Shown: positions 27,435 to 29,198 of the stretch, piece after piece
Numbering within the stretch: the stretch's first letter is position 1
Layout: each line of letters begins with the position of its first letter
From: Candidatus Electrothrix yaqonensis
GTDB taxonomy: Bacteria > Desulfobacterota > Desulfobulbia > Desulfobulbales > Desulfobulbaceae
Assembly (NCBI GenBank): GCA_047651235.1
Contig: CP178758.1
Span: 1,920,001 to 1,952,000, forward strand
Direction: 5' to 3'
DNA length: 32,000 bases
Program-made: the position numbers and the translations under genes
The notes under the pieces: model-generated
The model's database searches: none
What the model was told of the DNA's origin: nothing
Seen by the model: the letters and a program-made list of their open reading frames with translations, nothing else

Positions 27435-29198
27435 CTATACAGGATAGGCAATCCGTTTTATATTCAGCAGATGTTTATACGTAACATTGTCTGTAGTTGA
27501 GTTTCCCTGGAATGTACCGCACCCTAAGGTCATGGAGGGAGATAAAGCACTGCTGGCACCTATGCACCCTAACGACCCTCCGGTATTAACCAGAATACGG
27601 CTGGCAGGCATCGCAAGGCCGAACCTCTTTGCCAACTTCTTATTTTGCGTATGAATAATTGCCGTATGCCCCCTCCCTTCATTTAAAAGAAGCTGTTTAC
27701 ACAGCTCAAACCCGGAGTTTTCATCTTCAAAGGTAAAAAGTGAAAGAACCGGCATTAACTTTTCCCGACCATATGCTTCTTGGATCTGATCATTTTTTAG
27801 AGGAACAACAAGAAGTCTGATTTTGCAGTCCCGTTTTATCCCGGATAAGTATGCAATATTTTCTGCTGATTTTCCAATTATTTTCTTTTGCACATATTGG
27901 AACGTTTCGTCAAAAATACAGGCGGTAAGCAGGGGAATCTCCTCCGGAGTCAATATGGCTGCTCCTGATTTTTCCAGAAACCGGAGAAAAATATCTTTAC
28001 TTGAAGAGGCAACGACCAAGTTGTTTTCAGAGCCGCAGATAACACCGTTGTCAAAGCTTTTGCTGCTGACTACCGTCTGAGCCGTGTTCCGCAGATCCGC
28101 ATCCGCGCATATCATTACCGGAGCATTGCCCGACCCGACGCCGAGAGCAGGTGTACCAGAACTGTAGGCGGCTTTCACCATACGCGGTCCTCCGGTTGCC
28201 AAAATAAAGGAAACATCCTTATGCCGCATAAGCAGTGATGTTGTCAGGCGGCTTGTACGTTCTTTCCACCATTGAACAAGGACGGACGGTGCGCCGTGTT
28301 TCTGCAGAATCCTTCGAATCAGCTCACCTGCTTTATTCCCGACTTTCAGGGCGTTTCGATGGGAACTTATAATTAATGCATTGCGGGATTTTATACAGAT
28401 TATTGTTTTGAAAAGTAACGTAGGCACTGGGTTGGTTACCGGAACCAACCCCAAAACAACACCTACAGGGCTTGCTATTTCGATCAGCCCTCCTGCTTCA
28501 TCCTGTCGAATAACGCCGAAAGCCTTTTTGCCCAAAAAACTTCGGGCAATTTCCGAGCAGACAAAATGGAGTTTTGTAACTTTATCAGCCGCTACACCAT
28601 ATCCTGTTTCAGAAACCTCCTCTTCAGCGAGAGATTCGGCCTGCTCCAAAAAACACTTTATGATCTCCCGGACGAGCGCGTCAACTCGTTCTTCCGTCCA
28701 ACTTTCAAAACTTTTTTGAGCCGTCACCCCTGCGGAAACCATCTTTTCGATTTCCGGAGGATATGTTGTGGTTGCCTGGAAGTCAGCCGACTCAACACTG
28801 ATCCTTCTGATAAGCCGCACCAGATGCCTCGACAACACAGCAAAGCATGCAGAAGTAACTTTTGGATTTTGTGCTTGAAGAGCGGCAAAATCTTCAACTG
28901 ACAGATGACGTACGATGACATCGGTGTGAGCATAATAATTGGCAGAACGCGGCCCGTCATCAATCAGGCTGAACTCACCGATCGTTGACCCGGCGTTGAG
29001 ATATTTCAGAATCCATTCATCAGGTTGACCCGCCTGATGGATGGATTCAATCCGAATTGTACCTTCATCAAGTATAAAAAAGCCATTTCTTGAGCTTCCT
29101 TTTTCTGCAATTAATTCCCCTTGTTTATAACGAACCGATTTTAAATAACTTTCAACAGCCTCGCGCTCCTCTGGTTCTAGCTTGTTTAGTAATTGCAT
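27435..29198 (-). CDS. fusion protein: N-terminal cyclic-nucleotide-binding (Crp-type effector) domain plus AdhE/EutE-type CoA-acylating aldehyde dehydrogenase domain
   Basis: 587 aa. cNMP pattern FFILDEGTIRIE...GSTIGEFSLIDDGPRSANYYA. ALDH pattern colinear with the AdhE N-terminal half: PVGVVLGLVPVTNPVPT, SSHRNA, ILATGGPRMVKAAYSSGTPALGVGSGNAPV, SKSFDNGVICGSENNLVV (catalytic Cys), GHTAIIH, SPSMTLGCGTFQGNSTTDNVTYKHLLN. Confidence 0.85.
   Translation of the reverse strand: MQLLNKLEPEEREAVESYLKSVRYKQGELIAEKGSSRNGFFILDEGTIRIESIHQAGQPDEWILKYLNAGSTIGEFSLIDDGPRSANYYAHTDVIVRHLSVEDFAALQAQNPKVTSACFAVLSRHLVRLIRRISVESADFQATTTYPPEIEKMVSAGVTAQKSFESWTEERVDALVREIIKCFLEQAESLAEEEVSETGYGVAADKVTKLHFVCSEIARSFLGKKAFGVIRQDEAGGLIEIASPVGVVLGLVPVTNPVPTLLFKTIICIKSRNALIISSHRNALKVGNKAGELIRRILQKHGAPSVLVQWWKERTSRLTTSLLMRHKDVSFILATGGPRMVKAAYSSGTPALGVGSGNAPVMICADADLRNTAQTVVSSKSFDNGVICGSENNLVVASSSKDIFLRFLEKSGAAILTPEEIPLLTACIFDETFQYVQKKIIGKSAENIAYLSGIKRDCKIRLLVVPLKNDQIQEAYGREKLMPVLSLFTFEDENSGFELCKQLLLNEGRGHTAIIHTQNKKLAKRFGLAMPASRILVNTGGSLGCIGASSALSPSMTLGCGTFQGNSTTDNVTYKHLLNIKRIAYPV

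Follow-up and report, generated by a model that had tools for sequence, protein, structure and literature searches.

Can an enzyme that interconverts aldehydes and acyl-CoA be switched directly by a cyclic nucleotide? This question is raised by a gene of Candidatus Electrothrix yaqonensis that lies in a stretch of 32,000 nucleotides (positions 1,920,001 to 1,952,000 of the forward strand of contig CP178758.1, assembly GCA_047651235.1), called the window below. At 27435..29198 on the minus strand, a complete gene, read as a single uninterrupted ATG-to-stop open reading frame (ORF) of 587 codons, encodes an N-terminal cyclic-nucleotide-binding (CNB) domain fused to a CoA-acylating aldehyde dehydrogenase (ALDH) domain. 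The answer favored here, with a probability of about 0.6, is that the protein is a CNB-gated CoA-acylating ALDH, in which a cyclic nucleoside monophosphate (cNMP), most likely cAMP, would bind to the N-terminal domain and change the activity of the dehydrogenase. The ligand-contact and catalytic residues are intact and under strong purifying selection, and the two domains are co-inherited. Cyclases and other CNB-tagged enzymes show a statistical association with the fused loci.

The Sensor Domain

The sequence-only reading of this DNA had assigned the first ~135 residues to the Crp/PKA-type cNMP-binding fold, and the assignment was borne out. The Pfam-A family cNMP_binding (PF00027) matches residues 22-111 (28866..29135, minus strand) with 51.4 bits (E=1.1e-13), above the gathering cutoff of 27.5 bits, and the PDB sequence matches and the AlphaFold2 (AF2) model place the CNB beta-barrel in the same residues. 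In a PDB sequence search with the full protein, the CNB region matched the Crp-family protein 4ev0 and regulatory subunits of protein kinase A (PKA), with E-values of 1e-10 to 1e-9. With the N-terminal domain as the only query, PKA regulatory subunits and a Crp-family protein of Thermus were matched with E-values of ~1e-11 to 1e-12.

In the phosphate-binding cassette of CNB domains, a Gly-Glu pair contacts the ribose 2'-OH, and an Arg-Ser/Thr/Ala-Ala segment contacts the phosphate. The cassette of the window protein is the motif quoted in the sequence-only reading, GEFSLIDDGPRSANYYA, which the translation check places at residues 74-90 (28929..28979, minus strand) and which includes Glu75, Arg84, and Ser85. 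Inspection for ligand competence found the canonical contacts, Gly74-Glu75 and Arg84-Ser85-Ala86, all in place. The cassette aligns column for column with that of PKA RII-beta, GELALVTNKPRAASAHA, from a cAMP-bound PKA regulatory subunit, and with that of the Thermus Crp protein, GEMSLLDEGERSASAVA. Among 120 relatives, these positions are nearly invariant (G74 in 120, E75 in 115, L78 in 120, P83 in 117, R84 in 118, S85 in 116, and A86 in 117), and the shared pattern can be written as GEFSLxDxxPRSA. The window cassette also fits the 'Other_bacterial' consensus of the 2007 census of CNB domains (Kannan et al. 2007, PMC2246266).

The Aldehyde Dehydrogenase Domain

Pfam, NCBIfam, and Foldseek agree on a CoA-acylating ALDH domain in residues 148-587 (27438..28757, minus strand). 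Pfam-A Aldedh (PF00171) matches residues 148-540 with 77.6 bits (E=9.3e-22; cutoff 23 bits). The colinearity of the residues after ~135 with the N-terminal ALDH of AdhE, claimed earlier together with the catalytic cysteine, was recovered: residues 143-584 follow positions 9-450 of the 872-position NCBIfam AdhE model (NF010378) with 452 bits, and the cysteine lies in the expected motif. In the PDB, the best sequence matches were two acetylating ALDHs (3k9d and 5j78, E~1e-93), followed by the AdhE structure 6ahc (7e-88); for both domains, the matches lie well outside what chance would give. When the ALDH half of the AF2 model was compared by Foldseek, template modelling (TM) scores of 0.92-0.93 were obtained with 5j78, 3k9d, and the SucD structure 8cei.

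The catalytic residues are conserved. Cys388 (28035-28037, minus strand) lies in the motif FDNGVICGSENN, residues 382-393 (28020..28055, translation-checked). It is invariant in an alignment of 50 sequences (A1) and lines up with the cysteine of FDNGTICASE in 3k9d and 5j78. His511 (27666..27668, minus strand), in a conserved G-H-T motif, is likewise invariant in A1 and aligned to the GHT of the same two structures; we take it to be the active-site histidine, a role borrowed from AdhE/PduP-type enzymes. The glycine-rich motif GVGSGNAP, residues 353-360 (28119..28142, minus strand), in which G353, V354, G357, N358, and P360 are invariant, is likely the nicotinamide-cofactor binding loop, as judged from the ALDH fold.

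The description of the protein as an acetyl-CoA/acetaldehyde enzyme holds in part. The acylating-ALDH fold stands, and acetyl as the substrate is a best guess, as every NCBIfam equivalog cutoff was missed (AdhE, 452 against 951 bits; EutH_ACDH TIGR02518, 417 against 620.1; SauS NF047625, 307 against 600). For the window's subfamily, a short-chain aldehyde or acyl-CoA is the most probable substrate, with acetaldehyde/acetyl-CoA as the leading guess. Succinyl, sulfoacetyl, or longer acyl groups may also be used.

The Linker Helix and the Proposed Mechanism

The two domains are connected by the alpha-B/C "hinge-lid" helix, residues 112-142 (28773..28865, minus strand), which leads from the CNB barrel to the ALDH and was delimited from the AF2 model and from conservation. 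For the full protein, AF2 gave a mean predicted local distance difference test (pLDDT) of 86.6 and a predicted TM score (pTM) of 0.77. Eight strands are predicted within residues 20-99, followed by helices at residues 101-110 and 112-142 (pLDDT 73-93). The second helix is continuous in the model, and a short low-confidence linker then enters the first ALDH helix. Residues P112, G115, L126, and R131 of the hinge helix are conserved, R131 in 118 of the 120 relatives. The helix after the barrel is the usual signal-transmission element of CNB domains. No solved structure in the PDB comparison spans both a CNB and an ALDH domain.

In the proposed mechanism, a single polypeptide would carry the CNB domain (residues 1 to ~142), joined through its own hinge/lid helix to the ALDH (148-587), which would catalyze R-CHO + CoA + NAD(P)+ <-> R-CO-SCoA + NAD(P)H. 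The ligand, a 3',5'-cyclic nucleotide and most probably cAMP from a class III adenylyl cyclase, would occupy the canonical cassette, where Glu75 would contact the ribose 2'-OH and Arg84 and Ser85 the phosphate. The bound nucleotide would reposition the alpha-B/C helix, which is predicted to run directly into the first ALDH helix. The activity of the ALDH would change as a result, most probably through the relief of autoinhibition, by analogy with the mycobacterial enzyme Pat. The binding of a nucleotide, its identity, the sign of the control, and the substrate are inferred.

Comparison with Known Systems

A close parallel is Pat/KATmt (Rv0998, MSMEG_5458), which has the same layout as the window protein, with an N-terminal CNB domain followed directly by an enzyme that uses acyl-CoA. 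The NCBIfam model NF058543 'acetyltransferase Pat' matches residues 3-141 of the window protein (E=3.6e-7). Among bacterial enzymes, Pat, a GNAT activated by cAMP, offers the best-studied case of autoinhibition that cAMP relieves. In contrast, the output domain of the window protein is an ALDH and not a GNAT. Proteins of the CRP/CAP family share with it the CNB fold, the PRSA-type cassette, and the long C-helix to the output domain. Unlike CRP/FNR proteins, it carries no helix-turn-helix (none in the Pfam scan), and the CRP model is matched only at positions 10-136 of 214.

On the catalytic side, ~440 residues of the window protein are colinear with the stand-alone acetylating ALDHs and the N-terminal half of AdhE (5j78, 3k9d, 6ahc), at 37-38% identity and a TM score of 0.92, with the FDNG-x-IC cysteine motif, the GHT histidine, and the Rossmann core in common. 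Compared with the acetylating ALDHs, the window protein has an additional N-terminal CNB module of 147 residues and scores under the equivalog cutoffs; compared with bifunctional AdhE, it is without the C-terminal iron-type alcohol dehydrogenase (Fe-ADH) half (no Fe-ADH Pfam match). SucD (8cei) and SauS have the same acylating-ALDH fold (TM 0.93; 270-307 bits) and no CNB domain, and their similarity is lower than that of the acetylating enzymes. As these two illustrate, the range of acyl groups that the fold can accept goes beyond acetyl. On its domain matches, the window protein would be classed as a member of the CNB and acylating-ALDH superfamilies, and not as an AdhE, an equivalog-level acetaldehyde dehydrogenase, a CRP, or a Pycsar effector.

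The statement that cNMP domains usually sit on DNA-binding, channel, or kinase modules proved too narrow, since fusions to enzymes are known, namely to GNAT, patatin, and pyridine-nucleotide oxidoreductase domains. The CNB-patatin proteins (NTE family) and the pyridine-nucleotide oxidoreductase-CNB proteins are also CNB-tagged bacterial enzymes and have other catalytic domains; the Pyr_redox-CNB family has been catalogued since 2007 as 'Bact_Pyrredox' (Kannan et al. 2007, PMC2246266). The principle of a CNB domain on an enzyme is thus not new, and only the ALDH output is. For that output, the earlier remark that cNMP control of such an ALDH is undescribed agrees with what was found: neither the literature searched nor the 2007 census (PMC2246266) yielded a description of a CNB-ALDH fusion. 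The paper on Electrothrix YB6 contains no mention of aldehyde dehydrogenases or cyclic nucleotides.

Distribution and Inheritance of the Fusion

CNB-ALDH is a widespread, database-visible, uncharacterised family and is not rare. The architecture occurs in at least 120 clusters at 90% identity and in ~30 clusters at 50% identity, and all 120 listed homologs (48-56% identity, ~586 aa) bear both PF00027 and PF00171. In a library clustered at 50% identity, 29 of the 150 top representatives match the query from the CNB domain onward. A CNB profile built in this analysis matches 30 of the 131 representatives in this library that have a near-complete ALDH domain. Genome loci were collected from one genome per species, and the best 80 were kept, of which 30 encode the fusion and 50 an unfused ALDH. 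The family spans ~ten phyla overall. The fused genome loci come from Planctomycetota, Chloroflexota, Bacteroidota, Verrucomicrobiota, Actinomycetota, Gemmatimonadota, Ignavibacteria, and Alpha- and Gammaproteobacteria, and the isolates Nocardioides humilatus (L020) and Albimonas sp. (L030) are among them.

The two halves have a common history. Pairwise identities of the CNB half and of the ALDH half are correlated with r=0.90, which indicates that they form one co-evolving unit. In a neighbor-joining tree of the ALDH domain, which is a rough distance tree read unrooted by best-split analysis, one split holds 29 of the 30 fused sequences together with 14 unfused ones, and AdhE-length and most other unfused sequences are excluded from it. 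This distribution indicates that the fusion is old and that the CNB domain was occasionally lost or decayed. Two proteins (P0146 and P0159) have an N-terminal extension of the same length in which the CNB domain is no longer recognisable. Further modules have been added in metagenome proteins, which include CNB-ALDH-Pyr_redox_2 (P0127), CNB-ALDH fused to a short-chain dehydrogenase/reductase (SDR), CNB-ALDH fused to a class III aminotransferase nearest to putrescine aminotransferase and PigE, and FHA-CNB-ALDH. The proteins with extended architectures are P0127, P0130, P0135, P0151, and P0159, the last being an ALDH-O-methyltransferase with a degenerate N-terminus.

Genomic Neighborhoods of the Relatives

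Neighbors were counted within 10 kb of each locus, cyclases were recognised by a home-made profile, and the counts were compared with the Fisher test. A class III cyclase is present at 5 of the 30 fused loci and at none of the 50 unfused ones (p=0.006), and one flanks the gene in 3 of the 8 metagenome relatives that were looked up. On a KSB1 contig, the cyclase lies directly downstream on the same strand and is followed by GAF-SpoIIE and metallo-beta-lactamase hydrolase genes. In Chloroflexi, a CHASE2-cyclase lies directly upstream, and the neighborhood also holds FecR, a metallo-beta-lactamase of the Apyc1 family, and a stand-alone CNB protein. The cyclase is transcribed divergently from CNB-ALDH in the lineage of P0097, and it adjoins CNB-ALDH in L010. 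In the window's own subfamily, subfamily A (at least 46% identity), neighbor clustering found no recurrent partner apart from the CHASE2-cyclase. The cyclases beside this subfamily bear a residue pair, Lys plus Asp/Thr/Ser, that is typical of adenylyl cyclases and makes cAMP the leading candidate for the ligand. Metallo-beta-lactamase-fold hydrolases were found beside cyclase and CNB genes in three loci (L001 12531-13331, L002 4204-4992, and L026 16209-17126). The L001 and L002 copies have Pfam matches to the Apyc1 (cNMP phosphodiesterase) family, and all three are candidates for dedicated phosphodiesterases.

In a sister subfamily (40-45% identity), CNB-ALDH clusters with a CNB-NTE/patatin lipase and with a type II NADH dehydrogenase (NDH-2) that bears a C-terminal CNB domain. 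NDH-2 is found at 19 of the 30 fused loci (p=5e-11) and patatin at 15 (p=2e-8), and neither is found at any of the 50 unfused ones. The three-enzyme cluster of CNB-ALDH, CNB-NTE_Ploop-patatin, and NDH-2-CNB is present in Nocardioides humilatus (L020 9926-16128), L019, L022, L028, L029, L035, and others, and a small class III cyclase directly flanks it in L019, L020, and L029. The CNB domains of the three enzymes form separate clades, with ~25% identity between classes and 40-46% within them, which points to ancient fusions that arose separately and respond to a common signal. The neighbors of the sister subfamily also include MMPL transporters, a LolA-like protein, and an acyl-CoA oxidase. The patatin and NDH-2 partners with a CNB domain of their own are absent from the window and from most of subfamily A. 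No description of the three-enzyme cluster was found in the literature searched.

Two further arrangements were seen. In L019, positions 11661-15236 form one stop-free ORF of 1192 aa with the order CNB-patatin-NDH-2-CNB, and L020 has two genes 3 nt apart; the L019 ORF is either a true fusion or the product of a sequencing error. In L089, CNB-ALDH is preceded on its own strand, at a distance of 27 bp, by an Fe-ADH gene (6807-7973), and the two resemble a split AdhE-like pair. As for the direction of the reaction, the linkage to NDH-2 in relatives suggests the oxidation of aldehydes. The fusions to a PigE-like/putrescine-type aminotransferase and to SDR fit reduction as well and are compatible with either direction.

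Alternative Explanations

Several observations weigh against gating by cAMP as proposed here, or against parts of it. The linkage to cyclases is confined to a minority of the fused loci. The window holds no cyclase, phosphodiesterase, alcohol dehydrogenase, patatin/lipase, or NDH-2 gene, so that the linkage of CNB-ALDH to cyclases is borrowed from relatives that are at most 56% identical. When an Fe-ADH partner was sought with the L089 query, L089 was the only fused locus recovered, and the other matches were true AdhE in unfused loci. In the AF2 model, pLDDT falls below 50 at residues 135-144, and the modelled placement of the two domains against each other is accordingly of low confidence. 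The cassette Arg is replaced by His in several subfamily-B lineages (L018, L021, L032, L037, and L038 in alignment A2), which suggests that nucleotide binding may be altered or lost there; the CNB domain can therefore drift from canonical binding. CNB-fold domains of other families bind haem, 2-oxoglutarate, or nucleosides. Acetyl is also only a tentative choice of substrate, since the protein falls short of all the NCBIfam equivalog cutoffs and is similar to SucD (33% identity) and SauS as well.

Some of these points fit other explanations. There is a small chance that the CNB-fold domain regulates the ALDH allosterically in response to a ligand other than cAMP or cGMP, such as a pyrimidine cNMP, a nucleoside, or a 2-oxoglutarate-like metabolite. 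The CNB and Crp/Fnr folds bind varied ligands (Kannan et al. 2007, PMC2246266). Trypanosome PKA is reported to bind nucleosides. At actinobacterial subfamily-B loci, the cyclases have Asp and not the adenine-specifying Lys, in keeping with such a ligand, as is the Arg-to-His change in some members of the family. However, all of the canonical cNMP contacts (G-E ... P-R-S-A) are retained in the window protein and throughout its subfamily, whereas families with different ligands typically lose the cassette Arg (PMC2246266), and the cyclases near the members of this subfamily look adenylyl-type. Slightly less probable is that the CNB domain has a structural role independent of any ligand, for example in dimerisation, scaffolding, or localisation, and that the ALDH is constitutively active. 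The window without a cyclase or phosphodiesterase neighbor would be expected under this explanation, and the CNB domain is evidently dispensable for the fold, because the 14 unfused relatives fall in the clade that contains 29 of the 30 fused ALDH domains and the CNB domain has degenerated in P0146 and P0159. Nevertheless, ligand-contact residues that are near-invariant across ~ten phyla would not be expected in a scaffold, and neither would the significant linkage to cyclases.

The remaining two explanations have far less room. A Pycsar-like anti-phage effector, in which a cNMP made upon infection would trigger cell damage, for example by draining NAD or CoA, is very improbable. PADLOC matched residues 20-128 weakly to PycTIR effector models (26-27 bits), as it did the neighboring cyclases to PycC models, and Apyc1-family metallo-beta-lactamase matches lie nearby in relatives. 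These PADLOC matches cover just the generic CNB and class III cyclase folds, and the defence-system reading was dropped on this ground. Moreover, the cyclases carry CHASE2 sensors and FecR partners, as is typical of housekeeping signalling, and the domain joined to the CNB is an intact metabolic enzyme whose catalytic residues are conserved, without a TIR or transmembrane toxic domain. The associated genes encode NDH-2, a lipase, an MMPL transporter, and an acyl-CoA oxidase, and the window has no cyclase. The joining of a small Crp-like gene to an ALDH gene by an error of assembly or gene calling can be given almost no weight. The genome is metagenome-assembled or from an enrichment, which would make such an error conceivable; however, the reading frame is uninterrupted, and the artefact is refuted by the recurrence of the ~586-aa architecture in over 120 independent sequences that span many phyla and assemblies, including the isolates L020 and L030. 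A CNB-gated CoA-acylating ALDH remains the preferred explanation for the gene.

The Gene and Its Surroundings in the Window

The CNB-ALDH protein is 100% identical to the NCBI entry 'aldehyde dehydrogenase family protein' of Candidatus Electrothrix sp. YB6 (P0001). Its Met1 is the aligned start in 104 of the 120 homologs, and its stop codon (TAA/TAG-type) lies at 27435-27437 on the minus strand. Convergent with the gene is a dCache-PAS hybrid histidine kinase (24813-27416). Upstream are small DUF202 and DUF1499 genes, a Tpx-like ORF, and another kinase. A scan of 27000-30000 for promoters and terminators gave nothing beyond the shuffled expectation, and no clear Shine-Dalgarno sequence was found before the CNB-ALDH ATG. 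An Rfam scan turned up no riboswitch or leader, its one match being a chance miRNA (E=0.31).

The origin of the gene may differ from that of its surroundings. The GC content at third codon positions (GC3) is 0.43 for CNB-ALDH, against 0.6-0.68 in most window genes. Between 27400 and 32000, GC3 is 0.29-0.43 in CNB-ALDH, DUF202, DUF1499, and the second kinase, and 0.52 in the Tpx-like ORF. The closest non-self homolog of the window protein is just 56% identical. Desulfobulbales are absent among the 80 genome loci kept, and the gene has no close relative in other Desulfobulbales representatives. The low GC3, the distant homologs, and the absence of a Desulfobulbales locus are compatible with 27400-32000 being a laterally acquired island.

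Elsewhere in the window, two large secreted-type proteins combine right-handed beta-helix/NosD repeats with other modules, one (9144-13217, plus strand, 1357 aa) with a CBM_3 domain and the other (18206-21250, minus strand, 1014 aa) with PKD domains. At 13292-14989 (minus strand) lies a gene for a RACo-type activator that acts reductively on corrinoid proteins (RACo_C_ter, 304 bits), a kind of protein that usually goes with Wood-Ljungdahl-type methyltransferase systems. The region 662-6466 (minus strand) contains two tandem AIM24-family genes, an M48 peptidase, proteins with DUF2207 N-/C-terminal domains, and a weak sulfotransferase-like ORF.

Possible Significance for cAMP Signaling

Taken beyond the single enzyme, the findings lend themselves to a wider and much more tentative proposal. 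There might be a phylum-spanning cAMP "regulon" that is free of transcription factors, in which a local class III cyclase and a candidate metallo-beta-lactamase phosphodiesterase would directly switch a set of individually CNB-tagged enzymes, namely an acyl-CoA/aldehyde dehydrogenase, a patatin-type lipase, and a type II NADH dehydrogenase. Such a regulon would gate the entry of lipid- or aldehyde-derived carbon and of NADH into respiration. In Electrothrix, one arm of it would stand by itself, having been acquired laterally. To our knowledge, few direct targets of bacterial cAMP exist outside CRP-type transcription factors, and mycobacterial Pat is the main enzymatic example. We also know of no understood cAMP physiology for many of the host phyla, such as Chloroflexota, Planctomycetota, and Verrucomicrobiota, or for cable bacteria, and the three-enzyme CNB-tagged cluster offers a ready hypothesis for the role of cAMP in them. 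CNB-ALDH is a soluble single-chain enzyme suited to spectrophotometric assay, and it has culturable hosts in Nocardioides humilatus and Albimonas sp. Metabolic engineering could also profit from an acyl-CoA reductase that nucleotides can switch. If the proposed gating is true, the acyl-CoA/aldehyde/NAD(H) node of metabolism would be placed under the control of a second messenger within seconds.

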